64,000 bases of DNA from Terriglobia bacterium (GCA_036496425.1 DASXLG010000202.1:69-64068), one strand, 5' to 3'. Shown: positions 17,720 through 58,538, numbered from the stretch's first letter. Numbers and translations: made by a program. The notes: generated by a model not told the origin, from the sequence alone.

Positions 17720-18681
17720 CAGCGCGGTATCGGGACACGCTTCGTCAGCTCATCCAGACAGGAATCGGCGGTCAACCCTTCGATTTCGGCTTCGGGTGTA
17801 AGCCTTACGCGATGCCGGAGCACGGACAAAACAACATCCCGAACTTCGTCGGGTGTGACGTATGAATTACCGCGCACCAAGGCGCGCGATTTTGCGGCGC
17901 GAAGAAGCATGACGCCGGCTCGCGGGCTGGCGCCGAGCCCGAGGCTCGAAGCCGATCGGGAGTTCCGGATAAGGTCGACAATGTAGTTGACGATCGATTC
18001 GTCGACCTCGACCCGGTTCGATGCGAGGCGGATCTGCAGCAACGTTGCCGGGTCGAGAACCGGTTCCACAGAGGCCTCCGGATGCTGAATGCCTTCGCCA
18101 AGACTGTGCATCCGCGCGATCATCCGGCGCTCCGCTTCGAGAGTGGGATAGTCCACGATGATTTTCATCATGAAGCGGTCCAGCTGAGCTTCGGGCAGCG
18201 GATAGGTTCCTTCATATTCAATCGGATTCTGTGTCGCAAGCACCGTCAGAAGGGGCGATAAACCGTGCGTCACGCCGTCGATGGTAATCTGACCTTCCTG
18301 CATCGCTTCCAGCAGCGCCGCCTGGGTTTTGGCAGGAGCGCGATTGATTTCATCGGCGAGGACAACATCAGCAAACAATGGGCCGGGACGGAAATGAAAC
18401 TCCGACGATCTCGGCTCGAACACGTTAACGCCCGAGACATCCGCCGGCATTAGATCCGGAGTGAATTGGATGCGTGAAAACTTTGCATTGATCGACGCCG
18501 CAAGACAACGCGCAAGAAGCGTTTTTGCGACGCCGGGAACACCTTCAATCAGCGCGTGGCCGCCGGCGACCACAACGACGATCAGGTCATCGATTACAGA
18601 TTCCTGACCTTCAATCAAATTCGCCAGATTTTGTCTGAGCTTAGCCAGCAGTGCCTGAACGTCTGCCCCGGGCAAGTCCAT
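17719..18681 (-). CDS. MoxR-family AAA+ ATPase
   Basis: Trimmed to the ATG at 18681 (MDLPGADVQALLAKL...). Carries Walker A (GVPGVAKT) and MoxR signature blocks. 320 aa. Confidence 0.9.
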   Translation of the reverse strand: MDLPGADVQALLAKLRQNLANLIEGQESVIDDLIVVVVAGGHALIEGVPGVAKTLLARCLAASINAKFSRIQFTPDLMPADVSGVNVFEPRSSEFHFRPGPLFADVVLADEINRAPAKTQAALLEAMQEGQITIDGVTHGLSPLLTVLATQNPIEYEGTYPLPEAQLDRFMMKIIVDYPTLEAERRMIARMHSLGEGIQHPEASVEPVLDPATLLQIRLASNRVEVDESIVNYIVDLIRNSRSASSLGLGASPRAGVMLLRAAKSRALVRGNSYVTPDEVRDVVLSVLRHRVRLTPEAEIEGLTADSCLDELTKRVPIPR

Positions 18682-19753
18682 CAGTGAAGCTCCTCGCGAT
18701 CGTTGCCGCCTTTTGTCCGAACTGAACGAAATCAGTGTCGGATAACACCTGCGTCGAAGCCGCAGCTTTTGCAGCCTGCGCATAGGAATCCAGATCCGCT
18801 CGTTCAATCCCCAGAGGACCCGCTAACCGTTCGCGGACAGCTGCGTCCATCAGATCAATGCGCTGGCGCAGAATCGTTGAAACATGCGCATTCAGATACT
18901 GTTGCATGATTGTCGCAGCCAGGATCCGCGCGCGCGCCGCACTGAATAAGCCGCCGAGAGCCTGTACGGTATCCACGGGATTGGTTCGTTCAACCGGCAA
19001 TTCATCAATCGGTGCTCCGAACCTGCGCCGGCAGCCGAAAATGTAAATCAGACCCGCCAATGAAAGCTGCGCGCACATCAACCCCCATGGGGTGGCGCTG
19101 AACATCGCCATAAGCGAAATCAGGCCACGCTGGGAAGCGAATCCAAGATGATATTCATCGAATAATGCGCCGCCGCCCCATTCCGAGCATCGTTGGGCAA
19201 GCCAGACTGCATTGTCGGTCTTACTCAGACTCGAATTTGAAAACGCATGATCATCCGCCACAAAAACGATTCTGCCCTTACCAACTGAAGTGATGGCCGC
19301 AGACTCCGTACCGCGGCCGGCGCCAGGACCGGCATGTATGGCATGCCGGTCGAGGAAATTCGGTACGGGACTCTTCGCGGAACTCTGGATGATCCAATCC
19401 GTATTGGACGCGAGTATCAATTGGCCGCCGGATCTGATCCATTCATCGAGTGCCCTGGCCTCATCCTGGCCCATGGTGTCGGGATGCATGACAATCAGCG
19501 AAGCGAAACCGGTGCGAGAGGGACGCTTCAGTTCTGTGAGTGGAAGACGCCACTGGCCGACGGAAGGCAATGCCCGCTGGAGGACAAGATAGATGGCCCG
19601 TCCGCCGCTGGCATCGGTGAAGAAAGTCGATGGTCTCCGCAAAACAGTATCGGTGGACGGATTCGCAGAAAGGGCGGAGATCGCCAGAATCAATATGAAA
19701 CAGATACCCGCGGCCAGCACTGCCGTCCATAGGTTCGACCGCGCTTCTTTCAC
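18641..19753 (-). CDS. DUF4350 domain protein
   Basis: A GTG start at 19753 forms a GTGA overlap with the upstream stop. Single N-terminal TM followed by a DUF4350-like periplasmic domain. Choice of start is uncertain. Confidence 0.55.
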   Translation of the reverse strand: MKEARSNLWTAVLAAGICFILILAISALSANPSTDTVLRRPSTFFTDASGGRAIYLVLQRALPSVGQWRLPLTELKRPSRTGFASLIVMHPDTMGQDEARALDEWIRSGGQLILASNTDWIIQSSAKSPVPNFLDRHAIHAGPGAGRGTESAAITSVGKGRIVFVADDHAFSNSSLSKTDNAVWLAQRCSEWGGGALFDEYHLGFASQRGLISLMAMFSATPWGLMCAQLSLAGLIYIFGCRRRFGAPIDELPVERTNPVDTVQALGGLFSAARARILAATIMQQYLNAHVSTILRQRIDLMDAAVRERLAGPLGIERADLDSYAQAAKAAASTQVLSDTDFVQFGQKAATIARSFTDGLARGRRSGTAG

Positions 19754-32390: not shown

Positions 32391-33476
32391 TTAAGGAAAA
32401 CTTACTCGGATCTCCGACTCTCTGCCGGTCACCCGGTAGGTTTTGCTCGGATAATTCGGATTTTCGAAAAGGAGCATGCTGCCGATCGGAACCTTGACTT
32501 CACCCAACGGAGTCTGCCCCAGCGGCTGGCGCTGCGATCCGTCGATCGAAACCTGGGCCCACGGCTTGGCGTTGATCTGAACCGGGATATCGAACGTGAC
32601 CATTGCAGTCGTTGTCTCGTTCGGTTTGATCACATGGGTGACGACCTTGCGCAGCCCCTGGTGCCGGTATTCCAGGCTCTGATTTCCGGCAGGCAGTGTG
32701 AGAGTCGTGGGGGCGGATCCGACCAGCTGATCGCCGAGATAGATGTCTACAGTTGTAGGAGAGCTGATAGCCAGCGTTCCGGTCTGAATGGGCACAGCAA
32801 CAGGAGAAGCCGATCTGACAATGGTCTGGGGCGGCGGCGGAACAGCAGCCGTCGCAAGTGAAACGTCCGTTGGCGCAGGCAACTCCACGGCTGCCGCGGC
32901 CGTGGGCGGCGGCGGTTGGGATTCAGGTTGAGGACTGAAGGAAACCGGCTCCGTCGCGACGGCCGCGGCCGCGGTCTGAGGAACGTTGCCGCTTTTGGAC
33001 CGCCCGGAAAGAGCCAGAAACCCAACCACTCCGGCAATGGCCACAATCAGGGTAATACCGGCCAAACCTCCTACAGAATTTTTCCGCACCGGGGCGGGCG
33101 GCGGCACGGGCCGTCGCTTGGGAACTTGCGCGACAAATGCCAGGTCCTGGCGCGCCGCGCGCGCCGGCTTGACGACAGGCGCCGGGGCAGGCGATGGAAC
33201 CGGCGGGGACGGTAGCGGCGAAGCTTGAGGCGCCGCGGGTTGAAGCGGCAGCAGCGACGCTGCCTCGGTCATCGGAGCCCGTGCTTTCTCTAGAAGCGCC
33301 TTTGCAGCTTTGTTTTCAGGATCGACAGCCAGAAACCGCAGAATGATTCCCTCCGCGGTCTTCCGGTATTTTTCTGGACTGTCGCACCAGGGTTTTTCTT
33401 CGAGCAAAACCCGCGCATTTTCCAAATCTCGATCTAATCCTTCAATGGACATCGCCTGACTCACTTCCTTGCGCAT
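32391..33476 (-). CDS. proline-rich single-pass membrane protein with C-terminal PEGA domain
   Basis: 361 aa. Central P/A-rich low-complexity region, one TM (LAGITLIVAIAGVVGFLAL) and a PEGA-like C-terminus (VDIYLGDQLVGSAPTTLTLPAGNQSLEYRHQGL). Confidence 0.55.
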   Translation of the reverse strand: MRKEVSQAMSIEGLDRDLENARVLLEEKPWCDSPEKYRKTAEGIILRFLAVDPENKAAKALLEKARAPMTEAASLLPLQPAAPQASPLPSPPVPSPAPAPVVKPARAARQDLAFVAQVPKRRPVPPPAPVRKNSVGGLAGITLIVAIAGVVGFLALSGRSKSGNVPQTAAAAVATEPVSFSPQPESQPPPPTAAAAVELPAPTDVSLATAAVPPPPQTIVRSASPVAVPIQTGTLAISSPTTVDIYLGDQLVGSAPTTLTLPAGNQSLEYRHQGLRKVVTHVIKPNETTTAMVTFDIPVQINAKPWAQVSIDGSQRQPLGQTPLGEVKVPIGSMLLFENPNYPSKTYRVTGRESEIRVSFP

Positions 33477-33623: not shown

Positions 33624-34793
33624 TCAGCTATTTGGAGAGGACCAGAGACGACGGGAGACAATATCCGCCCCTTCGCGGAGCGCTTTGAGTTTCAACCAGA
33701 CGGCTGGTTCGATGACCCATTCGCGCCCGGTGAACGTCCCAAAACCGCAGTCGGCGCTGGCAATCACCCGTTCGCGGTCACCGACCGCAGTCACGGCTTC
33801 CTCAATGCGGCGAGCGACGACTTCAGGATGCTCGACGATATTACTGGTGGTCTCGACGCATCCCGGAACCAGGACCATCTCCACCGGAAGAGGGTGACGG
33901 CGGAAGGCGGAATACTCATGCTGATGACGCGGGTTGGCGAACTCAATACTCAACGCGCCGACCCTGGCCTGGTAAAGCACAGGCAGCACCAGATCGAGCG
34001 GCACATCGAAAACATGTGGACCGTCCCAATTTCCCCAGCAGCAGTGCAGTCTCACCCGATCGCGCGGAATTCCTTCGATCGCTTTGTTGATGGCGGCGAC
34101 ATGCTTTTCAATTCCCGCGACGAATTGCGCGTCGGTTGCATCGCGGTAGAACATGGACCGATCCATTGCCAGGTCGGGCGAATCGATCTGCACGATAAAG
34201 CCGGCCTCATGAATCGCGCGGTATTCATTGCTTAACTCGCGCGCGAGCGCCATGAGGTACGCCTCGTGCGAATCGTAGTAGGCGTTGAGCATGGTAGTTG
34301 AAACAATGCCGGGCGAAGGCGCAGTGATGAAACAGTCTGAAAATGCCGGCGCCGCCTGAAGGGCCCGCTTGAGCCGGGCAAGTTCCTCGCGGATGGCGCC
34401 CGTTCCCAGATAGTGCAGTTCTTTTTGTGCCTCGGGCGCATTTTGCATGCGGCTGCGCTTCGGGAAGCGCTGTTTCAGAACCTCGATCAGCTCCGGGAAT
34501 TCTTCATAATCGCGGCCGCGGCGGCGCTTCGATTCTCCCGCAAATCCGGACATCCGCTGCGCCACATAGGTCTGAAACCCGACGCGCTGCTGTTCGCCGT
34601 CATTGCCGATATCGACACCGGCCGCCGCCTGCTTTTCGACTACATGTTGCACGGCACGACCCATGGCACGCGCGAGCGCGTCTTTATCGACAGCGGCTCC
34701 CTCTTCGCGGCGGACCAGTAGGTCAGAAAGTTCGTCGTTGCGCGGCAAGCTTCCGACATGAGTTACGAGAATGCGATCGCGGCTGCTGTTCAT
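33624..34793 (-). CDS. MetE-like (cobalamin-independent methionine synthase family) protein, second copy
   Basis: Tool ORF trimmed to the internal ATG (MNSSRDRILVTHVGSLPRNDEL...). The start coordinate is +/-1 nt because the printed text and ORF-track coordinates disagree by one base in this region. Confidence 0.7.
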   Translation of the reverse strand: MNSSRDRILVTHVGSLPRNDELSDLLVRREEGAAVDKDALARAMGRAVQHVVEKQAAAGVDIGNDGEQQRVGFQTYVAQRMSGFAGESKRRRGRDYEEFPELIEVLKQRFPKRSRMQNAPEAQKELHYLGTGAIREELARLKRALQAAPAFSDCFITAPSPGIVSTTMLNAYYDSHEAYLMALARELSNEYRAIHEAGFIVQIDSPDLAMDRSMFYRDATDAQFVAGIEKHVAAINKAIEGIPRDRVRLHCCWGNWDGPHVFDVPLDLVLPVLYQARVGALSIEFANPRHQHEYSAFRRHPLPVEMVLVPGCVETTSNIVEHPEVVARRIEEAVTAVGDRERVIASADCGFGTFTGREWVIEPAVWLKLKALREGADIVSRRLWSSPNS

Positions 34794-34805
34794 CGTCCAC
34801 AGTAT

Positions 34806-34859
34806 AGGGTCGCACACCTGAATTCCCGAATTCGAATTCGGGAGTTCAGGTGTGCGACC
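34806..34859. repeat. 54-bp near-perfect palindrome (GGGTCGCACACCTGAATTCCCGAATTC|GAATTCGGGAGTTCAGGTGTGCGACCC)
   Basis: 27-bp arms with a single G-U wobble and no loop. It overlaps the last codons and stop of the GT2 gene, and ends about 10 nt before the MetE-like start. Coordinates are +/-1. Confidence 0.65.
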
Positions 34860-36279
34860 CCCTCCGCCCCATGCGCCCCACATTCCGCGCGAAGCGGTCC
34901 CAACTCCTATCGCCGCGGAGAAATTGCACGACGCCTTTTGCGTTCGCATACACGAGGATCGGCCGATAAAGCAGCAGATCCAGCGGCGCAATCAGCGCCA
35001 TTCGTGTCAGCGCGCTCACCCGGTAATAGTGGAAGGCCGATTCGTTCAACCACAAACTGATCTCCGACATGATTCCGAGCGCAAGCACCTGAATCCCGAG
35101 CAGGGAAAAGAACTCTTTGAGATCCACCAATCGCAGCCAAAGCCCAAGACCCAGGGAAGCCAGGACGATCAACTGTACGAATGGCCCGAAACACTCGGAA
35201 ATAATCAAATACGGTAACCCGACAAACCCGAGCGCGCCGTAACGTGGCCGGAATAGAACTCTTCGGTAGTGCCACACCGTCTCCAGGATCACGCGCTGCC
35301 AGCGCGCCCGCTGGCTGATAAGCGCTGTAAGCCGCTCAGGGCCTTCGGTCGCCCCCACGATATCGGGAAGCGACAGGACGCGGCCGGGCCTCTTGTCGCG
35401 CTTGTACCTCTCCAGAACCCGGACTGTCATTTCGAGGTCTTCGCAGGTGAAAGCGGGCGAGAAGCCTCCAACCTCGAGCACGACGTCACGGCGCCAGATG
35501 GCAAAAGCCCCGCTGGCGCACAGCATGATGTTCATGCGGCTCCATGCCAGGCGATTGTTGAGAAATGACCGAAGAATCTCCAGGTGCTGGAAGTTGATCC
35601 AGAGATGCCGATCGATGTTCTTGTTTCCGATTTCGCCGGCCTCCTCCTGAAGTTCATGCCGGACGGCAACAATGCTGGTAATACCCAGCACTCCGGCCGG
35701 ATCTTTAATCGCCGGGCGCATCGCAACCAGCAGCGCATCGGGTTCGTATGCCGCATCGCCGTCGACGCAGCAGATATAACGGTCGCGCGCGAAGTTTACT
35801 CCGCAGTTCAACGCGTCGGCTTTGCCGCCGTTGCATTTATCGATGACGATCAGCCGTGGATCGGTCCGGCTGCGATAAATAGCACGCACGGGGCTGGTTT
35901 GCAGGAGCCGCCGCGCTGTCACACTGACCGACTGCAAGACGAATTCCCGGCGAAGTGCTCCAAGCGTTTCGTCTTTTGATCCGTCGTTAACGACGACAAT
36001 TTCAAATTCCGGATACTCAAAGGCCAGGAGCCGGCGCACCACCGCTCCAATCATGCCCTGCTCGTTGTAGACCGGGACAATGACGGAGACGGGGATGGTG
36101 AAGCGCGAATCCGACAACGCATCATAATCGTCCGTATGCGACTCGGCCGTACGTCTCCGGTTTTCCAACATGGCGACAATGGCCATGAACAGAGTGAAGG
36201 CGTAAAGCAGCATCAGGTATGCAAAACTGAGCAGAAAGGTCCAATCGAAGAATGGTCTTAGCGCGAGCCCTGAAATCAT
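34846..36279 (-). CDS. family 2 glycosyltransferase, processive synthase type (PgaC/IcaA/BcsA-like)
   Basis: 477 aa with N- and C-terminal TM segments. Carries the GT2 DxD and QxxRW-type blocks (...VNDGSKDET..., ...QRARWQRV...). Confidence 0.85.
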   Translation of the reverse strand: MISGLALRPFFDWTFLLSFAYLMLLYAFTLFMAIVAMLENRRRTAESHTDDYDALSDSRFTIPVSVIVPVYNEQGMIGAVVRRLLAFEYPEFEIVVVNDGSKDETLGALRREFVLQSVSVTARRLLQTSPVRAIYRSRTDPRLIVIDKCNGGKADALNCGVNFARDRYICCVDGDAAYEPDALLVAMRPAIKDPAGVLGITSIVAVRHELQEEAGEIGNKNIDRHLWINFQHLEILRSFLNNRLAWSRMNIMLCASGAFAIWRRDVVLEVGGFSPAFTCEDLEMTVRVLERYKRDKRPGRVLSLPDIVGATEGPERLTALISQRARWQRVILETVWHYRRVLFRPRYGALGFVGLPYLIISECFGPFVQLIVLASLGLGLWLRLVDLKEFFSLLGIQVLALGIMSEISLWLNESAFHYYRVSALTRMALIAPLDLLLYRPILVYANAKGVVQFLRGDRSWDRFARNVGRMGRRGSHT

Positions 36280-36285
36280 GGCTGT

Positions 36286-37515
36286 TCACGCCGCCTGAAC
36301 GCCGGCTCGCTTCAAGACCCGAAGTAAGCGGGGTTTCATTGCTGGTTCGGCTCGGCCGATGGCCGCCTGGACGAATCCCTCCGCGGCGGCCGTCATTATC
36401 TTTCGTATGAGAAGCATTTCGTCTTTCCTGTCGTTTCGTACCGCTTCCGCGAGCATCTCGTCGAGCACACCGAGATCCTGAAGAATTTCAGCGGCCCCGT
36501 TGCGAGCGAACATATCCCTGGAATCCAGATATGGAATGACGTCGGGCGCAACGGGCGGCCCCATCGCGCGCAGCGCCTGTTTGGCGGCGGCGCGAACCCA
36601 CCATTCTTTGTCGCCCAGTAAGGGCACGACACCGGGGGCAAAGTCGAGTCGTCTTAAATCTCCAAGCGCCTTGACAGCATGAGCGCGGACATACCAAACG
36701 GGATCGTCCAGACGCCGCAAGGCCGACTCCGCAGCCTGCGGACCGCCCGCCTTGCCGAGAGTTTCGATCGCTGCTTTCCGGACTTCCGGATCGCTGTCGT
36801 CCGACGCCAACGCCAGCAAGCGGTTGATTTTCGCGGACCCTGCGTATCGCTGAAGTAGTGTCGCGGCCCAAAACCTTACTTTCGGGTGGCGGTCGGCCAA
36901 TAAGCCCGTCAGAAGGTGGGGTATTGGAATGGAAAGTCGATCGATTTGTGTCGCCGTGCGAGATCGCGAATAGGAGCCAAGCCGAAGGGCCGTGACGAGC
37001 AGACGGGCGCTTCGAAGATCGTTCCTGTGGCCGAGCAGGCTCACTGCTGCACCAACCAGATCATCATCATTCGCAAAGACCGCTTTCTCCAGCAGCTGCT
37101 CTGACGCGGGATGCTCGGCCAGTGCGAGGATCCGCAGCGCTTCGATTCTCAGCCACTTCCCCCCGAGCAACGGCCGCGAGGCTGCTCTTACCAGGCCGCC
37201 TGCGCCCCAGTGTTGCACGACATACATCGCAAAAATGCGAGCCTGCCACGGCAGCGTTCTGCTTTCCACAGCGATTGCTTCGATGGTTTTTCTGGGAAGC
37301 CGCTGCAGAACCGGCAGAATTTCTTCGTGCGTGGCAAGCCTCGACACGAGCTCATGCGTTTCGTTCAGCTGCCGGCGGATGCGCTGCGCCAGGCGTCTCT
37401 GACGGTCGTAGATCAGACGGTTCACAACGAGCGCAAGAGAGATCGCTAACCATATGAGGAACAAAACACCGCATATCCATAGGAAGTAAGGTTCCCAGGC
37501 AGCATAGCGAATCAT
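36286..37515 (-). CDS. HEAT-repeat (PBS-lyase-type) protein with N-terminal TM
   Basis: 409 aa. One N-terminal TM followed by multiple HEAT-like repeats (..DPEVRKAAIETLGKAG.., ..DPVWYVRAHAVKALGDL.., ..KEWWVRAAAKQALRAMG..). ATGA overlap with the YaiO-like gene. Confidence 0.7.
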   Translation of the reverse strand: MIRYAAWEPYFLWICGVLFLIWLAISLALVVNRLIYDRQRRLAQRIRRQLNETHELVSRLATHEEILPVLQRLPRKTIEAIAVESRTLPWQARIFAMYVVQHWGAGGLVRAASRPLLGGKWLRIEALRILALAEHPASEQLLEKAVFANDDDLVGAAVSLLGHRNDLRSARLLVTALRLGSYSRSRTATQIDRLSIPIPHLLTGLLADRHPKVRFWAATLLQRYAGSAKINRLLALASDDSDPEVRKAAIETLGKAGGPQAAESALRRLDDPVWYVRAHAVKALGDLRRLDFAPGVVPLLGDKEWWVRAAAKQALRAMGPPVAPDVIPYLDSRDMFARNGAAEILQDLGVLDEMLAEAVRNDRKDEMLLIRKIMTAAAEGFVQAAIGRAEPAMKPRLLRVLKRAGVQAA

Positions 37516-38294
37516 AGCTTGCGGCGTAGTCCGATGGAGAAACCACGACGGTTATAGAAACGTCCTTCATTCTCTCCCGAAACCGAGAACGATACGGCCC
37601 ATGCCGGCGCAAACCAATGTGTACCGTTGAGATTCATCAGCTTCACGGGAGTCTGCACGACGCCCGCAGGAAAGATGTTATCCAGTTCGCTGCCGGCTGC
37701 GGCATTGAGGCTGATCGAATTGCGGCCGTAGTAGTAGTCTGCCTCCACCCGTGATGTCGAAGAGGCGCCCGCACCTTTGAGGTAGCTCTCGTACAAGGTG
37801 TAAGCCAGGTGGAACGATCGAATGTACTTTTCCACTCCTGCATTCGTGATGTAAACCGACGCACCTTCGTATTTCCGATGCCGGACTCCAGCGTCAGCGC
37901 CCCAGCCGTTGCGAAAGCTGCGGTCGATTTGCCCGAACCCTGACCAGGCAGGCAGGATGTTATGGGTAGGACTGATATCTCCCTCGAAGACTCCGGTCCA
38001 CGAGCGGCCGAGCGGGTAATACAAACCGGCGGTGGCCTGACTATCGAGCATTGAAAAACGGCTCGTCTCGTCAATCGCGCCGTAAAGGACCTTGCGCTCG
38101 CTGAAGTGATGGATGCCCGACACATATGCGTCCCGCCAGGGCGCAAATCCGTTGCTTAGCGTTTCGTAACGGATGCCTGCCTCTGCATCCGTGGTCTGCT
38201 GGAAAGCGGGTGTAGAATCCTGGCCTTCCACCAGGGGCACGGCTGCTAAAAGAGCTGATGCGGCGAGCGGTATAAAGAGCCTAAGCGGAATCAT
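37512..38294 (-). CDS. YaiO-family-like outer-membrane beta-barrel protein
   Basis: 260 aa with a signal peptide. Beta-strand-rich with aromatic girdle residues. Size and pattern are consistent with YaiO-type OMPs. Tentative. Confidence 0.55.
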   Translation of the reverse strand: MIPLRLFIPLAASALLAAVPLVEGQDSTPAFQQTTDAEAGIRYETLSNGFAPWRDAYVSGIHHFSERKVLYGAIDETSRFSMLDSQATAGLYYPLGRSWTGVFEGDISPTHNILPAWSGFGQIDRSFRNGWGADAGVRHRKYEGASVYITNAGVEKYIRSFHLAYTLYESYLKGAGASSTSRVEADYYYGRNSISLNAAAGSELDNIFPAGVVQTPVKLMNLNGTHWFAPAWAVSFSVSGENEGRFYNRRGFSIGLRRKL

Positions 38295-38297
38295 GGT

Positions 38298-39281
38298 TCA
38301 TGCCGCCGGCGTTTGCTCCAACCGGTGCGCCATATCGTTTGCCACTGAACGGATGATCGCGTCGATCGAAGTGGTTGGCCTGTAGCCGGTGATCCGTTCC
38401 AGCTTCTCGAGTGACGGAACACGGCGAAACACGTCTTCGAATCCGGGACCGTAGACCTCTTCGTAAGGAATGTGCGTGATTTCGGACGATGAATTCGTGA
38501 TCTGCTTCACCGCGGCGGCAAGATCATTGATGCTGATTTCCTGATCGTTCCCGATATTGACGACATCACCGACCATTTCGGTGGACCTGGCAACGCGGAC
38601 TAATGCTTCGACGATATCCGCAACGTAGCCGAAACACCGCCGTTGCTCGCCGGATCCATATACCGTCAAGGGATCGCCCAGGAGTGCCTCCCGGACGAGA
38701 TTGGGTACGACCATTCCGTAACGAGCGGTCTGGCGCGGCCCAACCGTGTTAAAGAATCGGACGACGGTCACAGGTACGTTGCGCTCGGTCCAGTAAGCGA
38801 ATCCGAGAAACTCATCCAGCATTTTGGAGCAGGCATAACTCCACCGTCCGTTGTGCGTTTCGCCCATGATGAGGTTCTGGTCTTCACGGAACGGAACCGC
38901 TTCGCTCTTGCCGTAGACCTCTGAAGATGAAGCGATCACCACGCGCTTCTGTTTTTTCGCGGCAGCCCGCAGGACGGTCTCGGTTCCGCCGAAATTCGTT
39001 TCGATCGTCCGGATCAGATTATGGACCACCAGACGCACACCGACGGCAGCCGCGAGATGAAAAATGACGTCCGCGCTATCCACCAGCTCGGCGACGAGTG
39101 GAGCATTGAAAACGGAATCAATATGATAGGAAAAGGATCCGCACGATCGAAGTGAAGCGATGTTCTCAAAAGCTCCCGTCGAAAGGTCATCGATGACAGC
39201 TACGTTCCACCCCTGCTTGACACAACGTTCAGACAGATGTGAGCCAATAAAACCTGCGCCGCCCGTAATCAGTATATTCAC
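38298..39281 (-). CDS. SDR-family NAD-dependent epimerase/dehydratase (nucleotide-sugar)
   Basis: MNILITGGAGFIGSHL... Carries the YxxxK catalytic motif (YACSK). Confidence 0.9.
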   Translation of the reverse strand: MNILITGGAGFIGSHLSERCVKQGWNVAVIDDLSTGAFENIASLRSCGSFSYHIDSVFNAPLVAELVDSADVIFHLAAAVGVRLVVHNLIRTIETNFGGTETVLRAAAKKQKRVVIASSSEVYGKSEAVPFREDQNLIMGETHNGRWSYACSKMLDEFLGFAYWTERNVPVTVVRFFNTVGPRQTARYGMVVPNLVREALLGDPLTVYGSGEQRRCFGYVADIVEALVRVARSTEMVGDVVNIGNDQEISINDLAAAVKQITNSSSEITHIPYEEVYGPGFEDVFRRVPSLEKLERITGYRPTTSIDAIIRSVANDMAHRLEQTPAA

Positions 39282-39339
39282 GGCTCCGTTCCTTGGAATG
39301 GCATCCTGCCGTTGGTAATGTCATTAAAAATGAAGCATG

Positions 39340-39381
39340 TTGCGTTCCACGGGTCACCCGCAGTTATAATGCGCCCGCAGC
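39340..39381 (+). promoter_or_regulatory. candidate sigma70-type promoter for the STAS/Mla-like operon (near-leaderless)
   Basis: TTGCGT - 18/19 nt - TATAAT, with the -10 element only 11 nt upstream of the ATG at 39382. No SD is present. Confidence 0.35.
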
Positions 39382-39732
39382 ATGAGTTCAACACGAACAC
39401 TGAACTTCGTCATCCGCGTTCTGAATCCGCAGACCACTGTTATCGATCTTGAAGGTGGAATCGATCTCCGGAACTCGCACGGTTTGCGGACCACGCTGTT
39501 CGAAAAACTCTCAACCACCTCACGGCTCGCGTTGAATATGTCGGGTATCGGGTACATCGATAGTTCGGGCATCGCAACACTGGTCGAAACGCTGAAAAAA
39601 GCCCAAGGCCTCCAAAAGGATTTCGTCCTGTTCGGATTGGGTCAGCGTGTTTACGATGTCCTGAAACTGACAAACCTTCTTGGAGTCTTCCAGGTTTTCG
39701 ACACCGAAGAACACGCTTTGCAGGGCAAATAG
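39382..39732 (+). CDS. STAS domain protein (anti-sigma-antagonist / MlaB-like)
   Basis: 116 aa. STAS fold pattern (...LNMSGIGYIDSSGIATLVETLKKAQ...). Confidence 0.7.
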   Translation: MSSTRTLNFVIRVLNPQTTVIDLEGGIDLRNSHGLRTTLFEKLSTTSRLALNMSGIGYIDSSGIATLVETLKKAQGLQKDFVLFGLGQRVYDVLKLTNLLGVFQVFDTEEHALQGK

Positions 39733-47083: not shown

Positions 47084-50000
47084 TTATGCTTCCTGTTCTT
47101 GAGACCAGTCCTCACGGGCTGGGGACCTGCGGGTGCTTTCCCACCAGACGCGGAGCCGGTCGAAGTAGAGGTAGACGACGGGAGTGGTGAAGAGCGTCAG
47201 CATCTGGCTGACAATCAGACCGCCGATGATCGTGATGCCGAGCGGACGGCGGAGTTCCGAGCCGGTGCCGGTTCCGAGAGCCAGCGGCAAGGCTCCGAGC
47301 AAGGCCGCCATGGTTGTCATGACGATTGGACGGAAGCGCAGAATGCAGGCCTCGAAGATGGCGTCGCGGGAATTCATGCCTTCGTTTCGTTCGGCGGCAA
47401 TGGCGAAGTCGATCATCATGATCGCGTTTTTCTTGACCAGGCCGATCAGCAGGATGATTCCGATCATGGCAATGACGCTCAAATCCGTGTGCGTGACCAT
47501 CAATGCCAGCAGCGCCCCGCCTCCGGCGGACGGCAGCGTCGACAAAATCGTAATCGGGTGAATGTAGCTCTCGTAGAGCATTCCAAGCACGAGAAACACC
47601 GTAACCAGAGCCGCGGCAATGAGCAGCGGCTCGCTGTTCAGCGAGGATTGGTAGGCCTGAGCCGTCCCGGTGAACGACGTTTGTACGGTGCGCGGCAGTC
47701 CGACTTTCGACGCTGCGGCGCCGATCGCAGCGACCGCGTCACCCAGAGCGACCCCCGGCTGCAGATTGAATGACAACGTCACTGCCGGAAACAGTCCCTG
47801 GTGTGAGATCGTCAACGGCGCCGTGGCGGGAGCGAAGCGAGCAAATGCAGCCAGCGGTACCTGTTGCTTGTTGGAGGAATTGACGTAGAGCTGTTTGAGA
47901 AACTGCGGATCCTGCCAGTATTGCGGCGCCACTTCCATCACGACGAAATATTGATTCAGCGACGTATACATCGTCGAAACCGGGCGCTGGCCGAAAGCAT
48001 CGTAGAGGGTGTTGTCGATCAACTGGGACGAAATGCCGAATCGCGCCGCCGTTTTCCGGTCGTAGGTCACCATGCTCTGCAGCCCGCGATCCTGCTGGTC
48101 GCTGCTCACGTCCGCGATAATCGGAATCTTGAACAGTTCTTCCAGCATCTTCGGAGCGACTTCATCCAGATCCGCCAGGTTGTCGCCTTGAAGCGTGTAT
48201 TGATATTGCGCATTGCTCTGACGGCCGCCGATGCGTAAATCTTGAAATGCCTGCAGATAGAGCGTCGCGCCGGGTATCGCGGCCAGCTTCGGGCGCAGCC
48301 GCTTTATGACGCCATCGACGTTTAATTTCCGCTCTGCAAGCGGCTTGAGCATGATCAGCATGCGCCCGCTATTGACCGTCGAATTGCCGCCGCCGCCGCT
48401 GAACGCCTGCACGGTTTCCACTCCGGGATCGGCAGACACCACGGCCACCATCTTTCGCAGAATCCCGTCCATTGCCTGAAAGGATGTGTCCTGATCCCCG
48501 ACAACGTTGCCGTTCATACGTCCGGTGTCCTGCTGTGGAAAGAAGCCCTTCGGAATCTGAACGAACAGGTACACATTCAAAGCAATCGTTGCAAACAACA
48601 CCATCAGCGTGACAAACGAGTGGCGAAGTACAACGTTGAGAGCACGGCCGTATCCATTCACGATCGAGTTGAAAACGTTCTCGCTGGCCCGATAGAACCT
48701 GCCATGCGCCGCGTGCTCCTTCAGAAAATGCGCGCACATCATGGGCGTCGTCGTCAGAGAGACGACCATCGATACGGCGATAGCAATGGAAAGCGTGATG
48801 GAGAATTCCCGCAACAGCCGCCCGACGATTCCCCCCATAAGCAGCAGGGGAATGAATACCGCGATCAACGAAATACTGATGGTGAGAACAGTGGATCCGA
48901 TTTCGCTCGCTCCCTTCAGGGCGGCATCGAACGGGCGCATTCCCTGCTCCAGATAACGCGAAACGTTCTCGATCACGACGATGGCGTCGTCCACGACGAA
49001 GCCGGTCGAGATCGTGAGCGCCATGAGCGACAGATTGTCCAGACTGAAATGCAGGAGATACATCGCCCCGAACGTGCCCACGAGGGATATCGGGACCGCC
49101 ACGGAGGGAATAAGCGTCGTCCGCCAGTCGCGCAGAAAAATAAAGACGACCAGGATCACCAGCAGCACGGAGAGCGAGAGCGTGCGCTCGACCTCATGGA
49201 CAGAGGCCCGGATCGTCACGGTCTGATCGATCGCGATCCGCATCTGGATGGACTTGGGAATGGAAGCCTGAATCTCGGGCAGCGCGGCGCGAATTCGATC
49301 GACGGTATCAATGATGTTGGCGCCGGGCTGACGGTAAATGATCACCAGAACCGACGGCTTGCCGTTGGCATATCCGCTGTTACGCAGATCCTGCACGGAA
49401 TCGATCACTTCGGCGACGTCGCTGAGCCGCACCGCGGTGCCGTGGCTGTATGTGATGAGAAGCGGCTTGTAATCGATCGCTTTAAACATCTGATCGTTCG
49501 CGCCGATTTCCCACTGCTGCAGGTCGTTCGTGAAGTGACCTTTAGGAGTGTTGGCGTTCGCGCTGGCCAGCGCGGTCCGGACCTGTTCGAGACCGATTCC
49601 ATATTTGCTCAGGACGTTGGGGTTGAGTTCCACGCGGACGGCAGGGAGAGAGCTGCCGCCCACCTGGACCTGGCCGACTCCCTGCATTTGCGACAGCCGC
49701 TGGGCCATGATCGTCGAAGCGGCATCGTAAATCCGGCCTTTGTCCAGGACATCGGACGTCAGGGCCAGCAGCAGAATCGGAGAATCGGCCGGATTCACTT
49801 TCCGGTATGTCGGATTGCTTGGAAGGTTCGCAGGCAGATAGCCGCGGGCCGCGGCAATCGCAGCCTGTACATCTCTTGCGGCCGCGTCGATATTGCGGTC
49901 GAGGTCGAACTGCAGCGTGATTCTGGTGGAGCCGAGCGTGCTCGTAGACGTCATTTCCGTCACCGCCGCGACACGGCCGAATTGCCGCTCCAGCGGCGTC

Positions 50001-50191
50001 GCGACGGAGGAAGCCATCGTTTCCGGACTTGCTCCGGGCAGGCCGGCCTGCACCGAAATCGTCGGAAAATCGACTTGAGGAAGCGGCGATACGGGCAGCA
50101 GCAGGAAGGCGACAGCGCCGGCCAGCGCCACTGCCGCAGACAGCAGCGTTGTTGCAACCGGTCTTCGAACAAATGGCTCGGAAAGATTCAT
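47084..50191 (-). CDS. efflux RND transporter permease (MdtC-like, second of tandem pair)
   Basis: Trimmed to the ATG at 50191 (MNLSEPFVRRPVATTLL...), giving 1035 aa with AcrB/MdtB/MdtC family architecture. Confidence 0.9.
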   Translation of the reverse strand: MNLSEPFVRRPVATTLLSAAVALAGAVAFLLLPVSPLPQVDFPTISVQAGLPGASPETMASSVATPLERQFGRVAAVTEMTSTSTLGSTRITLQFDLDRNIDAAARDVQAAIAAARGYLPANLPSNPTYRKVNPADSPILLLALTSDVLDKGRIYDAASTIMAQRLSQMQGVGQVQVGGSSLPAVRVELNPNVLSKYGIGLEQVRTALASANANTPKGHFTNDLQQWEIGANDQMFKAIDYKPLLITYSHGTAVRLSDVAEVIDSVQDLRNSGYANGKPSVLVIIYRQPGANIIDTVDRIRAALPEIQASIPKSIQMRIAIDQTVTIRASVHEVERTLSLSVLLVILVVFIFLRDWRTTLIPSVAVPISLVGTFGAMYLLHFSLDNLSLMALTISTGFVVDDAIVVIENVSRYLEQGMRPFDAALKGASEIGSTVLTISISLIAVFIPLLLMGGIVGRLLREFSITLSIAIAVSMVVSLTTTPMMCAHFLKEHAAHGRFYRASENVFNSIVNGYGRALNVVLRHSFVTLMVLFATIALNVYLFVQIPKGFFPQQDTGRMNGNVVGDQDTSFQAMDGILRKMVAVVSADPGVETVQAFSGGGGNSTVNSGRMLIMLKPLAERKLNVDGVIKRLRPKLAAIPGATLYLQAFQDLRIGGRQSNAQYQYTLQGDNLADLDEVAPKMLEELFKIPIIADVSSDQQDRGLQSMVTYDRKTAARFGISSQLIDNTLYDAFGQRPVSTMYTSLNQYFVVMEVAPQYWQDPQFLKQLYVNSSNKQQVPLAAFARFAPATAPLTISHQGLFPAVTLSFNLQPGVALGDAVAAIGAAASKVGLPRTVQTSFTGTAQAYQSSLNSEPLLIAAALVTVFLVLGMLYESYIHPITILSTLPSAGGGALLALMVTHTDLSVIAMIGIILLIGLVKKNAIMMIDFAIAAERNEGMNSRDAIFEACILRFRPIVMTTMAALLGALPLALGTGTGSELRRPLGITIIGGLIVSQMLTLFTTPVVYLYFDRLRVWWESTRRSPAREDWSQEQEA

Positions 50192-50196
50192 GATTC

Positions 50197-53100
50197 CTAG
50201 CGGGCCGGCTCCGCGGCCTGCCCGAACGTTTCCATTTCCACGCTTTTGCCCGAGAGGCGGCGCGCCAGCCGCCCGAACCAGAGATAGATCACAGGAGTCG
50301 TGTAGAGCGTCAGCATCTGGCTGAAGATCAGGCCGCCAATGATCGTGATCCCGAGAGGCCGCCGGAGTTCCGCTCCGGTTCCCGTTCCCAGAGCAAGCGG
50401 GACTCCGCCGATCAAAGCGGCAACAGTGGTCATCAGAATCGGGCGGAAGCGCAACAAACATGCCTGATAAATCGCGTCGAGCGGCGCCATGCCCTGCTTT
50501 CTCTCGGCTTCGAGCGCAAAGTCGATCATCATGATCGCGTTTTTCTGCACGATTCCAATCAGCAGCACGATTCCAATCAAGGCGATAACACTGAAATCGT
50601 TGCGCGTGATCATCAGCGCCAGCAGCGCTCCGACGCCCGCGGACGGCAGCGTCGAGAGAATCGTGAGCGGGTGAATGTAGCTTTCGTAAAGAACGCCCAG
50701 CACGATGTATACGGTCACCAGCGCGGCCAGAATGAGGATGGGTTCGTTCGCCAGCGACGCCAGAAATGCCTGGGCCGTTCCCTGAAAGGCGGTCTGCATG
50801 CTCTGCGGCACGCCGATCTGCGCCTTGACTTCATCCACGGCCTTCACGGCATCGCCCAGCGACGCGTTGGGAGCCAGATTGAAAGAGAAAGTCACCACCG
50901 GGAACTGGCCCTGATGGTTGACGGTGATTGGAGACGATGTCAACTCCACGCGGGAAAACGCGCTGAGTGGAACCTGTCCCCCGTTCGGAAAAACAGCTGA
51001 AGCCGCCGAAGTGCTGTTGCCGAACACGGCGCCCGACGCCTGTGACCCGGATGCCGGCGACGTCGCCCCTGTCAGAATGGCGGCCGTCGATGTCGCCGCG
51101 GCATTTTTCGGACCTGTCGAAATACTGGTCGACGATGAGCCGCCTGAAACGATGCCGCTCGAATTGCCTGAGATTCCGGTACGGATGAAAAGCCTGTTCA
51201 GGTCAAGCGGGCTCTGCTGGAACTCCGGTTTCACCTCGAGCACGACGTGATACTGGTTCAACTGCGTGAACATCGTCGAAACCTGGCGCTGCCCGTAGGC
51301 GTCATACAGCGTCTGATCGATCGCCGAGGTTGTTATGCCGAAACGATCGGCGGTGTCGCGGTCATAAACGATGGTTGCCCGCAAGCCCTGCACCTGTTGG
51401 TCCGATGCGACGTCGCGAAGCTCCGGCCGCGATTGCAGCCCTTTCAGCATCTTCGGCACATATGAATTCAGCTCTGTGGCGCTCGGGTCTTCGAGGGTGT
51501 ATTGGAACTGTGTGCGGCTGACGCGGTCCTCGACGCTCAGATCCTGGACCGGCTGCATGAAAAGCGTGATCCCGGAGACCTCCGCCAGCTGAGGCTGAAG
51601 CCGCCGGATGATGCTGGTAGCGCTTATCTTGCGGTCTTCAAGAGGCTTCAGGTTGATCTGAATGCGCCCGCTGTTCATCGTGGTATTTGTACCGTCGATG
51701 CCGATGAACGACGAAAGGCTTTCCACCGCAGGATCTTTCATGATTACTTGCGCCAGCACCTGCTGCTGCCGCGACATCTGCGCAAACGATACGGTCTGGG
51801 CCCCTTCCGAAATACCCTGAATCACGCCGGTGTCCTGAATGGGAAAGAAGCCCTTGGGAATCACGTTGAAGAGGTAAAACGTGAACCCGAGAGTTGCTGC
51901 CGCGACCAGAAGCGTGGTGGTTCGAAAACGGAGCACAACCTGCAGCGTCCGGCCATACAAAGCGATGATGCCGTTAAACACGCGCTCCGATACATGGTAG
52001 AAGCGGCTCTGTTCCTCTTCTCTCTTATAGCGCAGCAGTTTTGAACACATCATCGGCGTCAGCGTCAGCGACACCACGGCGGAGACCAGAATCGTCACGG
52101 CGAGCGTGACGGCGAACTCGCGGAAAAGACGGCCGACGATGTCGCCCATGAACAGCAGGGGGATGAGCACCGCGATCAGCGAGATCGTCAACGAGACGAT
52201 CGTGAACCCGATCTGCTCCGAGCCCTTCAGCGCAGCCTGCATCGGAGTCTCGCCTTCTTCAATGTAGCGGCTGATGTTTTCGATCATCACGATCGCGTCA
52301 TCGACGACGAAACCTGTCGAGATCGTCAGCGCCATCAAGGTCAGGTTGTTCAGGCTGTAGCCCAGCAGGTACATCACGCCGAACGTTCCGACCAGCGAAA
52401 GCGGGACGGCGATACTCGGTATCACCGTGGCAGCAACATTGCGAAGAAACAGAAAAATCACCAATACCACCAGCGCCACCGTGAGCATGAGCTCGAACTG
52501 GACGTCGGAGACCGAGGCGCGGATAGTGTTGGTCCGGTCGGTGAGGATGCTGACCTGCACGGTTTTCGGGAGCGTGTTCGTCAATTGCGGCAGCAACTGC
52601 TTCACACGATCGACGACTGCAATAATATTGGCCGCCGGCTGACGTTGAATATTGACGATGACGGCGGGAGTGCTGTTCATCCACGCGGCCTGCCGCAGGT
52701 TTTCCGTATCGTCTTTGACGGTTGCAACGTTGGACAGCTTGACGGGAGCTCCGTTCCGGTAGGCAACCACCAGACCGGTATAGTCTGCGCTGGAGAGCAA
52801 CTGGTCATTCGAACCGATCTGGAAATCCTGCTGAGAACCGTCGAAGTTTCCTTTAGCCTGATTCACGTTCGCGGCGGCGATGGCGCTGCGCACATCCTCG
52901 AGGTTGATGCCGTACGACGCCAGCATTGTCGGATTCGCCTGAATCCGGACAGCCGGTTTCTGCCCGCCGCTGATGCTCACCAGACCGACGCCCGGGAGTT
53001 GCGAGATTTTCGGAGCAAGACGCGTATCCGCAAGGTCTTCGACGTTCGAGAGCGGAATATCGGCAGAACTCATCGCCAGTGTCAGAATCGGCGTGTCCGC

Positions 53101-53502
53101 AGGGTTGGTCTTGCTGTAGACGGGGGGCGCCGGGAGATCCGGCGGCAGGTACGTTCCGGCGGCGTTGATGGACTGCTGAACCTCCTGCTCCGCCACGTCG
53201 ATGTTCAAACTGAGACTGAATTGAAGGGTGATAACCGAACTGCCGTCGGAACTGGTCGACGTCATCTGCTGCAACCCCGGCACCTGCCCGAACTGGCGCT
53301 CCAGAGGAGCCGTGACCGACGAGGCCATGACATCGGGACTTGCTCCCGGATAGAACGTCACAACCTGGATGATCGGATAATCGACTTCCGGCAATGCCGA
53401 AACCGGAAGCTCTTCGTAGGCGACGGCGCCGGCGAGTAGAATGCCCGCCATCAACAACGACGTTGCAACCGGGCGCAGGATGAACGTCCGGGACGGGCTC
53501 AT
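50197..53502 (-). CDS. efflux RND transporter permease (MdtB-like) with low-complexity periplasmic insert
   Basis: 1101 aa. About 70 aa of S/G/T/A-rich low-complexity sequence (...[61 protein letters not shown]...) is inserted in the periplasmic domain. Confidence 0.9.
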
Positions 53503-54803
53503 GAATTTCCACCCTGCTTGTCTTTCGGGTTTTCTCCCTGGATCTGCGCACGAACCGCGCTGCCTTCGATCAACTTGTCCACACCGGTCAAGACGACGGT
53601 GTCATCCGCATCCAGGCCGGTTGTGATTTCGCTTTGATCGCCCTCGGTCGTTCCGATCGTGACGTTGCGGAGCGTCACCGTTGAATCCGGCTTTACAAGG
53701 AAGACATAGGTGTTCGTTCCGGACCGCTGAATTCCTGCCGAGTTCACCAGCACCACGTTCTGTTTTTGCTGCACCAGCAGCCGGATGTTGACGAACTGGC
53801 TGGGGAACAAGGCGTCGTCCTTGTTGTCGAACGTTGCGCGCAGGCGCAGGGTGCCGGTGGTCTGGTCGATGACGTTGTCCAGAGTCGTCAGGGTCCCCTG
53901 GGCAATCTTCTTTGCCATGTCGTGGGAGAAGGCATCAACTTGAAGCGTCTGTCCGGCGCGCATCCGATTGCGTATATCGGGAAGCTGATCTTCCGGAATC
54001 GTAAAAATCACGCTGATCGGTTGAAACTGAGTGATGACAACCAGTCCATTCGTGTCCGACGCGTGCACGATGTTTCCCGGATCCACCAGGCGAAGTCCGA
54101 CACGGCCGGTGATCGGCGCCGTGATCTTGGAGTAGAGAAGATTCAACTTGGCGCTGTCGATCATGCCCTGATCGGCTTTCACTACGCCTTCGTTCTGGGC
54201 CACCACAGCCCGCTGGGTCGCCAGCTGCTGTTCCGGAATCGCGTTCTGCTGAAGAAGCATTTGATAACGGGTCAGATCCACTCTCGCGTTGTTGAGGATG
54301 GCCTGATCGCGACCCAGTTGCCCTTCATATTGATCCAGCTGTGCCTGATACGGACGCGGGTCCACCTCCATCAGAAGCTGGCCTTTCTGAACGAGATCGC
54401 CTTCATGGTAGAGAATGTTGATCAGTTCCCCATCCACCCGCGTCTTTATCGTGTCGGTGTAGATCGGTGTCACCGCGCCAAGCCCCGTCAGGTATACGCC
54501 GATATTGCCGCGTTTCGCGCGAGTGGCCACCACCGGCACCGCATTGGAATTCGCCTTCTGGTCGGCCGAAGCTTTGTTCGCCGCCTGCGTGCCCTGGGGA
54601 CTGCCGCCTCTGAACCAGTAGAGCCAGGCGCCAACGCCCAGCAAAACGAGGACAAGCAGCCAGCCCCATCGGCCCTTGCCCCCGCTTTTGGGAGGCGGCT
54701 GTGGCGGTAGCGTCGTGTGCCCGGGCGACGGCATCTCCCGGATCGTGGGTTCTTTGATTTCAATAGAAGATTGTTTGATTTCGTTTAATGATTCTGGCGT
54801 CAT
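53499..54803 (-). CDS. efflux RND periplasmic adaptor (membrane fusion protein, MdtA-like)
   Basis: 434 aa. N-terminal TM followed by HlyD-family lipoyl, beta-barrel and MP domains. ATGA overlap with the first RND gene. Confidence 0.85.
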
Positions 54804-58502: not shown

Positions 58503-58538
58503 ATTACGATTCGATCTTACTGCCGTTCGCGAAACACG

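Follow-up and report, generated by a model that had tools for sequence, protein, structure and literature searches.

The 64,000-nt stretch of Terriglobia bacterium DNA analysed here (GCA_036496425.1, DASXLG010000202.1:69-64068; hereafter the window) carries on its minus strand a compact operon of four genes. In order of transcription these encode a short-chain dehydrogenase/reductase (SDR), a beta-barrel protein of the YaiO family, a HEAT-repeat protein with a membrane anchor and a processive glycosyltransferase of family 2 (GT2) with multiple transmembrane (TM) helices. Synthase-dependent secretion, as known for cellulose, poly-N-acetylglucosamine (PNAG), alginate and Pel, is the paradigm for biofilm matrix polymers, and the known systems each have a characteristic inner-membrane partner and usually a cyclic di-GMP (c-di-GMP) switch. 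On balance it is probable that the operon represents a minimal polysaccharide secretion system of this kind, in which the HEAT protein and the GT2 synthase would make up an inner-membrane engine, with HEAT as a cytoplasmic co-subunit, and the SDR and the barrel would be accessories. Its new feature, apparently undescribed, would be an invariant, membrane-anchored, cytoplasmic HEAT partner of the synthase, to which YaiO barrels and a UXS-like SDR are optional additions.

Open reading frame (ORF) calls on the window DNA gave four minus-strand genes at exactly the coordinates that had been proposed in an earlier reading of the sequence alone (the sequence-only reading), in which they were also described as co-directional and tightly packed. 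The features of the locus are as follows:

38298 to 39281, minus strand: SDR gene (327 aa, GTG start), the first gene of the operon.
37512 to 38294, minus strand: gene of the YaiO-family barrel (260 aa).
36286 to 37515, minus strand: gene of the HEAT-repeat protein (409 aa).
37423 to 37479, minus strand: region coding for the TM helix of the HEAT protein (residues 13-31, single N-terminal TM helix).
34846 to 36279, minus strand: gene of the GT2 synthase (477 aa).
34806 to 34861, minus strand: GC-rich palindromic hairpin overlapping the GT2 stop codon.
39282 to 39381, no strand assigned: divergent intergenic region of 100 nt between the operon and a STAS-domain gene.

The junctions were read directly from the DNA and consist of a 3-nt gap between the SDR and barrel genes, a 4-nt stop/start overlap (ATGA) between the barrel and HEAT genes and a 6-nt gap between the HEAT and GT2 genes. 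Such close spacing is what a single operon with translational coupling would show.

The product of the last gene matches the Glycos_transf_2, Glyco_tranf_2_3 and Glyco_trans_2_3 models of Pfam. Its GT-A domain lies between one TM helix at the N-terminus and four at the C-terminus, five in total, and the last of these helices is followed by a basic, cytoplasmic tail of 32 residues. The motifs DGD173, CED279 and QRARW323 are present, and D173, D175, E280, D281, Q323, R324 and W327 are invariant across 36 homologues. Searching the sequences of the PDB with this protein returned generic matches to the GT-A N-terminus only, and a fold search was needed. With an AlphaFold 2 (AF2) model (pLDDT 86.2, pTM 0.88) as the query, the best full-length Foldseek matches were the Chlorella virus hyaluronan synthase (HAS; TMq up to 0.64), Xenopus HAS1, BcsA and yeast Chs1. 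The motifs, the layout of the TM channel and the full-length fold match are all those of a processive synthase, in agreement with the sequence-only reading. Activity itself is predicted from fold and motifs: the protein would polymerise a UDP-sugar on the cytoplasmic face of the membrane and move the growing chain through its own TM channel. With the curated synthase families the similarity is limited, the score against the PgaC_IcaA model TIGR03937 being 94.6 bits in three stretches against a cut-off of 422.3, so that the protein is not an equivalog, and that against the CelA/BcsA model TIGR03030 being 31.3 bits against a cut-off of 699. The automatic annotation of JGI labels the family 'PgaC'. 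Orthology with PgaC was considered and ruled out by the sub-cut-off TIGR03937 score together with the identity to E. coli PgaC, which is 25% and is confined to the GT-A core.

The HEAT-repeat protein was matched to HEAT_2 (PF13646) in Pfam with 107 bits (5.8e-31) in four stretches, and its repeated helix units form the alpha-solenoid that is typical of HEAT proteins; this assignment in the sequence-only reading was likewise borne out. None of the curated subfamilies of NCBIfam was matched, with NblB, CpcE and PRK13800 all scoring far under their cut-offs. The AF2 model (pLDDT 92.3, pTM 0.83) shows a long helix spanning residues 8-60, followed by an uninterrupted solenoid of approximately 22 helices (residues 63-403). 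The TM helix (residues 13-31) lies within the first of these, with a Kyte-Doolittle mean of 2.68 over 19 residues, and is followed by an arginine-rich flank, NRLIYDRQRRLAQRIRRQL, that is predicted to be cytoplasmic. The N-terminal helix and its residue W22 are conserved among the homologues.

The orientation of the protein was assessed on the 120 closest homologues, 94 of which have the N-terminal helix, by counting lysine and arginine residues (K+R) in flanks of 15 residues. The mean count was 0.18 on the N side of the helix and 3.64 on its C side, and the bias was to the C side in 89 of the 94 homologues. Under the positive-inside rule such a bias places the short N-terminal tail in the periplasm and the whole of the solenoid in the cytoplasm. 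The positive charges come after the helix and not before it, which argues that the helix is not a signal peptide. Sequence and model thus predict a protein whose short N-tail is periplasmic and whose single TM helix leads through a stalk helix into a cytoplasmic solenoid. At protein level the window matches a Terriglobia (Acidobacteriota) MAG with 100% identity. The public NCBI gene call for the HEAT protein in this MAG (P0001) is 379 aa in length (approximately 36286-37425); it begins at an internal GTG (V31) and loses the conserved TM helix. This start is probably wrong and the call too short, since homologues cover 97-100% of the long form of 409 aa and 94 of the 120 keep the helix.

A scan of 185,579 species-representative genomes, with an alignment of the HEAT family as the query, returned 347 loci, of which the best 80 were examined. 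These are distributed over the Acidobacteriota (Vicinamibacteria, Solibacteraceae and Marinacidobacterales), the Actinomycetota (Thermoleophilia/Gaiellaceae and others) and the Gemmatimonadota, and they include a Burkholderiales metagenome-assembled genome (MAG) and the cultured proteobacterium Vulcaniibacterium gelatinicum. In 78 of the 80 loci the HEAT gene is immediately followed by a co-directional GT2 homologue, the two exceptions being contig ends, and in seven of the nine loci with pre-called genes the end of the HEAT gene overlaps the beginning of the GT2 gene by 1-4 nt. The pairwise identities of the HEAT and GT2 proteins also co-vary (r = 0.70, Mantel p <= 0.001, 69 loci). Synteny had been put forward in the sequence-only reading as a check on the module, and the result is divided: HEAT-GT2 adjacency is conserved throughout, while the four genes are not conserved together as a set. 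The conserved unit is the HEAT-GT2 pair, and the SDR and the barrel are lineage-specific accessories.

The gene upstream of HEAT varies with the lineage: 15 loci have a DUF5658 protein (secreted or membrane-bound) in this position, 13 an NT5C/HAD-like protein, six a member of a second YaiO subfamily and three an SDR. An SDR directly upstream of the module was found only in L001, L024, L038, L083 and L084. The DUF5658 neighbours occur in Vicinamibacteria-type loci (for example L013, L014, L018, L019, L032, L036 and L040) and are approximately 190 aa long, beginning with a signal peptide and carrying the DUF5658 membrane domain at the C-terminus. From their position, the DUF5658 and NT5C/HAD-like proteins may be alternative, lineage-specific partners of HEAT-GT2. 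No recurrent gene was found downstream of GT2 among the related loci, and in the actinomycetotal locus L086 the pair sits among housekeeping genes with no barrel. A full-text search of the literature returned no paper on a HEAT-repeat partner of a synthase-type GT2, and the pairing is apparently undescribed so far.

Two peculiarities of the sampled loci can be mentioned here. In one Acidobacteriota MAG (L002/L087, 9225-10548) the GT2 gene following HEAT is split in two pieces with no intact gene called, which is probably a pseudogene or an assembly frameshift. Four loci from MAGs labelled as uncultured Bifidobacterium/Bifidobacteriaceae (L023, L025, L026 and L045) carry HEAT-GT2 loci of the Vicinamibacteria type with neighbours known from acidobacterial MAGs, and the taxonomy assigned to these TPA assemblies seems doubtful.

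Given the invariant adjacency, the translational coupling, the co-divergence and the shared membrane, we infer that the HEAT protein sits next to the synthase in the membrane and forms a physical complex with it, as an obligate co-subunit on the cytoplasmic side that would stabilise, activate or regulate the enzyme. More speculatively, its TM helix might pack against the five TM helices of the synthase and so add a sixth, and the solenoid might contact either the GT domain or the basic C-tail of GT2, in which W460, R465 and N466 are conserved. Domains of the PilZ, GGDEF or MshEN type are absent, and for this reason the HEAT protein could plausibly fill the niche that is held elsewhere by PgaD, by the TM anchor of BcsB or by c-di-GMP receptors. 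No homology was found between it and the known co-subunits BcsB, PgaD, Alg44 and PelD/E/G. Otherwise its gene could merely be transcribed along with GT2, the product being a cytoplasmic adaptor or regulator with its site of action elsewhere, for instance in recruiting precursor enzymes or in positioning the machinery within the cell, and with no direct effect on catalysis. Such a role would agree with the outcome of Foldseek, in which the HEAT model matched generic protein-binding solenoids only (alphaRep, importin-alpha, beta-catenin and PP2A-A), none of which hints at a function. It would also agree with the result that no catalytic or ligand-binding domain was found in the protein with Pfam and NCBIfam, and with the ARM or Sel1 solenoid partners that serve eukaryotic synthases in trafficking and positioning. 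However, near-universal adjacency, overlapping start and stop codons and co-divergence favour a stoichiometric complex, and the protein's own TM anchor puts it in the membrane of the synthase. We therefore regard the adaptor role as improbable and retain that of a co-subunit of GT2.

The barrel protein scored 111.7 bits against TIGR04390 (cut-off 32), aligning to positions 3-228 of the 230 in the model, and 64 bits against PF19413 (cut-off 23.9). At its N-terminus is a hydrophobic stretch resembling a signal peptide (residues 4-22), which leaves a mature protein of approximately 235 residues. Judged by these profile scores it is a bona fide YaiO-family member, as had been proposed from the sequence alone. 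The kinship is at profile level only, as BLAST detected no similarity between the window barrel and E. coli YaiO. In a profile comparison with PgaA the hhalign probability was 0.4%, and a PDB sequence search with the barrel gave no match. Pfam assigns no tetratricopeptide repeat (TPR) domain to the window barrel. Relatives were collected by an exhaustive HMMER search over 1.84 billion cluster representatives, which yielded 1044 of them, compared with just four from a word-indexed search. Approximately one third of the best 150 relatives have an N-terminal extension of 150-390 residues, and the extension was TPR in eight of the ten extended proteins that were scanned. These TPR-YaiO fusions share their architecture with PgaA, BcsC and PelB. 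In the literature on YaiO we found list entries only, along with a remark that YaiO models were 'deformed or broken barrels'.

Barrels in the related loci were identified with a custom iterated HMM and Pfam, and the neighbourhoods were taken from pre-called genes and from HMM-anchored ORFs. By this approach barrels were found in L004, L007, L034, L038, L067 and L077, and tentatively in L062, the locus of the cultured Vulcaniibacterium gelatinicum R-5-52-3. A tblastn search had placed the barrel in none of the 80 loci; this result was set aside as a sensitivity artefact, the iterated HMM and Pfam having found barrels. The exact order of the window, SDR-YaiO-HEAT-GT2, recurs in L084, an independent metagenome contig, at 51-66% protein identity, which argues that the arrangement is not a chance juxtaposition. 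The order YaiO-HEAT-GT2 is seen in L081/L082, L085 (the same locus as L004), L007, L034, L067 and L077. With a TPR-fused barrel it is seen in L089 and L090, these being both of the TPR-YaiO genes whose neighbourhoods were viewable. In Gemmatimonadota-type loci the barrel instead follows the synthase (HEAT-GT2-YaiO; L038, 3924-6253, Pfam 1.7e-23, and L099). Barrels of the window subfamily adjoin HEAT-GT2 in L081/82, L084, L089, L090, L093-95, L097 and L098. Eight metagenome loci were approached from the barrel side, and in five of the six that are long enough the barrel is succeeded by a HEAT-family ORF and this by GT2. The barrel and the HEAT-GT2 pair thus find each other in reciprocal searches, upholding the logic of synthase plus outer-membrane barrel that the sequence-only reading had drawn, and the barrel stays tied to the pair in three different gene orders. 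It belongs to the system, as an accessory that is restricted to some lineages. The absence of the SDR and the barrel from most related loci might suggest that the four genes are neighbours by chance, with no functional module behind them. Against this stand the recurrence of the exact order in L084, the junctions of 3 nt, -4 nt and 6 nt, and the reciprocal synteny, by which chance is effectively refuted.

Three of the loci with barrels have unusual features. In L099 (2889-5048, P0232) GT2 and the barrel form one ORF of 719 aa, in which the cytoplasmic tail of the synthase is followed by a signal-peptide-like segment and then by the barrel; either the two proteins are truly fused and internal cleavage is required, or a stop codon was lost or the assembly is in error. 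In L089 (6609-12990) the TPR-YaiO-HEAT-GT2 genes are flanked co-directionally by a response-regulator gene upstream and by a CHASE/PAS histidine kinase gene downstream, which suggests two-component control, transcriptional or post-translational, in that lineage. In L091 (1833-4416) a 485-aa ORF comes immediately after a window-type barrel and aligns to the GT2 profile in its C-terminal TM portion only; neither a HEAT gene nor a match to the GT-A domain was found at this locus, and the ORF could be a degenerate or a different partner.

The 32 Actinomycetota loci yielded no barrel, as against seven of approximately 44 other loci with adequate flanks (one-sided hypergeometric p ~0.02, without correction for phylogeny), which fits a role bound to the outer membrane. 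It is proposed that the barrel is the polymer's exit across this membrane, and in the window the TPR-less form would provide it.

These results also bear on the model of the sequence-only reading, in which a TM-anchored HEAT solenoid in the periplasm would replace the TPR scaffold of other systems and guide the polymer from the synthase to the YaiO porin. There were reasons to think so: the protein is anchored by one TM helix at its N-terminus and folds, as TPR does, into an alpha-solenoid, its gene lies between those of the barrel and the synthase in the window, and the window barrel has no TPR domain of its own. The charge bias in 89 of 94 homologues, however, places the domain in the cytoplasm. 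Replacement of TPR is further contradicted by L089 and L090, in which TPR-YaiO fusions and HEAT coexist, and by the retention of HEAT-GT2 in the 32 Actinomycetota loci with no barrel, as well as in most diderm loci with no adjacent barrel. A periplasmic scaffold now appears very improbable, and the solenoid is better placed, on prediction, on the cytoplasmic side of the synthase.

For the first gene of the operon, the proposed label of epimerase/dehydratase was right as to family and too general as to type. The protein belongs to the Epimerase family (PF01370, 6.9e-48; GDP_Man_Dehyd, 1.1e-49), and its nearest solved relatives are UDP-glucuronate decarboxylases, namely human UXS1 (4.5e-49) followed by the ArnA decarboxylase domains. 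The best NCBIfam models, which are LegB, UDP-4-keto-pentose/UDP-xylose synthase and ArnA, all remain under their cut-offs (153 bits against 294 for NF008872; 139 against 777 for ArnA). The motifs SSE (S/T-E), YxxxK and NTVGPR (NTxGPR) line up with those of the UXS1/ArnA relatives. By homology the enzyme is therefore probably of the UDP-glucuronate decarboxylase type (UXS/ArnA-like), rather than a plain epimerase. In the Terriglobia lineage it probably supplies or modifies the donor of the synthase, or one such donor, possibly a pentose derived from UDP-glucuronate (UDP-GlcA).

Several points weigh against the proposed reading of the operon or limit it. The correlation of HEAT and GT2 identities would likewise arise from shared vertical descent, and the positive-inside rule is a strong heuristic rather than a measurement. 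In approximately 40 of the 48 diderm loci in the sample there is no adjacent barrel, so that the barrel is either dispensable or encoded elsewhere. From the period-2 hydrophobicity the window barrel would have approximately 12-14 strands, a crude and noisy guess, and the known exopolysaccharide (EPS) porins PgaA, BcsC and AlgE have 16-18. The window also has no periplasmic TPR or other scaffold that would span the periplasm. No c-di-GMP receptor domain (PilZ, GGDEF or MshEN) was detected in the four proteins with Pfam and NCBIfam, although an unrecognised site is possible, and none of the polymer-modifying enzymes or hydrolases typical of synthase-dependent systems was found. Finally, the Foldseek matches of GT2 include 6yv7 (TMt 0.76), a non-secreting archaeal mannosyltransferase with a minimal cellulose-synthase-like fold, which means that the fold alone is no proof of polymer secretion.

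Much of this would be accounted for if the product of HEAT-GT2 were cell-associated, for example a membrane glycolipid, a short oligosaccharide as made by NodC, a glycan in the periplasm or linked to the wall, or a carrier that is glycosylated, with the barrel in an ancillary role such as anchoring, uptake or recycling. Most loci have no adjacent porin, the barrel is small, a c-di-GMP receptor, a hydrolase and a deacetylase are all missing, 6yv7 is a good structural match, and the DUF5658 and NT5C/HAD-like neighbours are unlike export parts. On the other side, QxxRW is invariant and the full-length fold matches of GT2 are polymer-translocating synthases, and the barrel is linked to the pair in three gene orders, occurs in TPR-fused forms as in PgaA, BcsC and PelB, and is missing from the Actinomycetota as an outer-membrane protein would be. 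Weighing these points, we consider a cell-associated product a substantial but rather unlikely alternative and continue to favour secretion of a polymer.

Among synthase-dependent systems the module is closest in logic to Pga and Bcs, yet it falls outside both when tested for membership. Several features recur in the Pga system of E. coli (PgaABCD), which makes poly-beta-1,6-GlcNAc. Its GT2 likewise has a GT-A domain with DxD/ED/QxxRW motifs, preceded by one TM helix and followed by others, PgaD is its obligate partner in the inner membrane, and the barrel porin of its outer membrane, PgaA, contains TPR. The partner in the window is nonetheless a HEAT solenoid protein of 409 aa and not a small protein with two TM helices as is PgaD. 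The operon further lacks the PgaB deacetylase/hydrolase, PgaD and the TPR-porin PgaA, with no link to c-di-GMP evident, and its barrel is unlike PgaA by profile, with approximately 235 residues in mature form and no TPR. The BcsA-BcsB-BcsC system shares with the module a processive GT2 channel, a partner anchored by a single TM helix and an outer-membrane barrel, in Bcs a TPR-plus-barrel porin, and BcsA (4P00, 4HG6) is among the top structural matches of the GT2. It differs in that the window has neither PilZ nor BcsB, and in that the large domain of BcsB is periplasmic whereas that of HEAT is predicted to be cytoplasmic.

The best structural matches to the GT2 were the class I hyaluronan synthases of Chlorella virus and Xenopus (HAS1) (PDB 7SP6-7SP9, 8SMM), in which a single polypeptide both polymerises and translocates. 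Sequence identity to these is only 14-16%, and HAS is not known to work with a dedicated protein partner or an outer-membrane component.

The genome of E. coli K-12 (L088, 380069-384616) has the genes yaiS (deacetylase), yaiP (glycosyltransferase), yaiX (acyltransferase, disrupted by IS2) and yaiO in one direction, so the link between yaiO and a GT2 gene that the sequence-only reading pointed to is indeed present there. As in the window, a YaiO-family barrel is co-directional with a GT2, and YaiP has the same layout of 1+4 TM helices and the DxD/ED motifs. In contrast to the window, the cluster encodes an acyltransferase and a deacetylase in place of a HEAT protein, the QxxRW motif of YaiP is degenerate (EEWRRW), and the window GT2 is 23% identical to YaiP. 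This cluster supports the idea that YaiO barrels serve small synthase-type GT2 systems, and the IS2 insertion in yaiX is consistent with a cryptic polysaccharide system in K-12.

Processive GT2 enzymes with alpha-solenoid partners are known from eukaryotes, where yeast Chs3 works with the Sel1-repeat activator Chs4/Skt5 and plant CesA with the armadillo-repeat protein CSI1. These offer a functional analogy, as there too a helical-repeat protein on the cytoplasmic side accompanies a processive GT2 in the membrane. The repeats belong to other families, with no homology implied, and the partners have roles in trafficking, activation and cytoskeletal guidance. The HEAT protein differs from them in having its own TM anchor and in being encoded in an operon with the synthase. 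By analogy, its role may be comparable in logic to that of PgaD for PgaC or to that of the solenoid activators of eukaryotic chitin and cellulose synthases.

A broader view is offered more tentatively, as possible but with less than an even chance of being right: HEAT-GT2 would be an unrecognised, phylum-spanning family of synthase machines, in which HEAT is an obligate co-subunit of a new class that replaces c-di-GMP receptors or partners of the PgaD/BcsB kind, and for which YaiO barrels, TPR-fused or not, act as dedicated and unusually small exits. If true, this would provide the first functional assignment for the YaiO family, including the yaiO-yaiP genes of E. coli. The family is an orphan even in E. 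coli and includes the TPR-fused forms that mimic PgaA, BcsC and PelB. A cytoplasmic HEAT partner found across phyla, with or without an outer membrane, would then extend the range of known partners and probably also the ways in which synthases are controlled, and the SDR-bearing lineages may build a UDP-GlcA-derived pentose polymer, which would be an unusual bacterial homopolymer. The carriers are abundant and little-studied soil lineages (Terriglobia, Vicinamibacteria, Gaiellaceae and Gemmatimonadota). The extracellular polymers of such lineages matter for soil aggregation and carbon retention, which gives the machinery ecological value. The computational finding is also of practical value, as it defines a clean system of two to four genes that is amenable to expression.

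With regard to the ends of the operon, the hairpin at 34806-34861 has a minimum free energy of -50.5 kcal/mol (z = -9.0 against shuffles). It is an imperfect palindrome of approximately 25 bp with no U tract, and is the sole copy in the window. A simple terminator scan did not call it because the T run is absent. It is a probable mark of the operon end or an RNA-stabilising structure, and may be a variant of a Rho-independent-like terminator, an RNA stabiliser or a protein-binding palindrome. The next gene past the operon is a MetE-like ORF with a probable start at ATG 34793. Upstream, on the other strand, are the STAS gene (39382-39732, plus strand) and then genes of a Mla-like ABC transporter, and the promoter of the operon presumably sits in the divergent region 39282-39381. 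A sigma-70 scan of 34600-39700 identified no promoter. A sigma-54-like element (TGGAACG-N4-ATGCT, GG-N10-GC) is present at 39334-39349 on the minus strand, 54 nt upstream of the SDR start codon. As a promoter it was dropped, there being 10 matches in the window where 11.6 are expected and the element being absent from eight relatives.

Other genes of the window include one at 32391-33476 (minus strand), two genes downstream of the operon, that encodes a protein of 361 aa, in which a TM segment and a low-complexity linker rich in proline are combined with a PEGA domain at the C-terminus. At 14628-18807 (minus strand) there is a MoxR-type chaperone cluster, unrelated to the operon, with successive genes for a MoxR AAA+ ATPase, a DUF58 protein and a membrane protein of the RDD/SpoIIM-domain type. 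Two tandem RND genes of the AcrB family (ORFs of 1125 and 1101 aa, overlapping by approximately 265 nt) are located at 47084-54803 (minus strand) with a HlyD-type membrane-fusion gene upstream. Beside them, at 55557-58649, lies the gene of a large Reg_prop/Y_Y_Y histidine kinase, and both this gene and the RND genes are seemingly unrelated to the operon.

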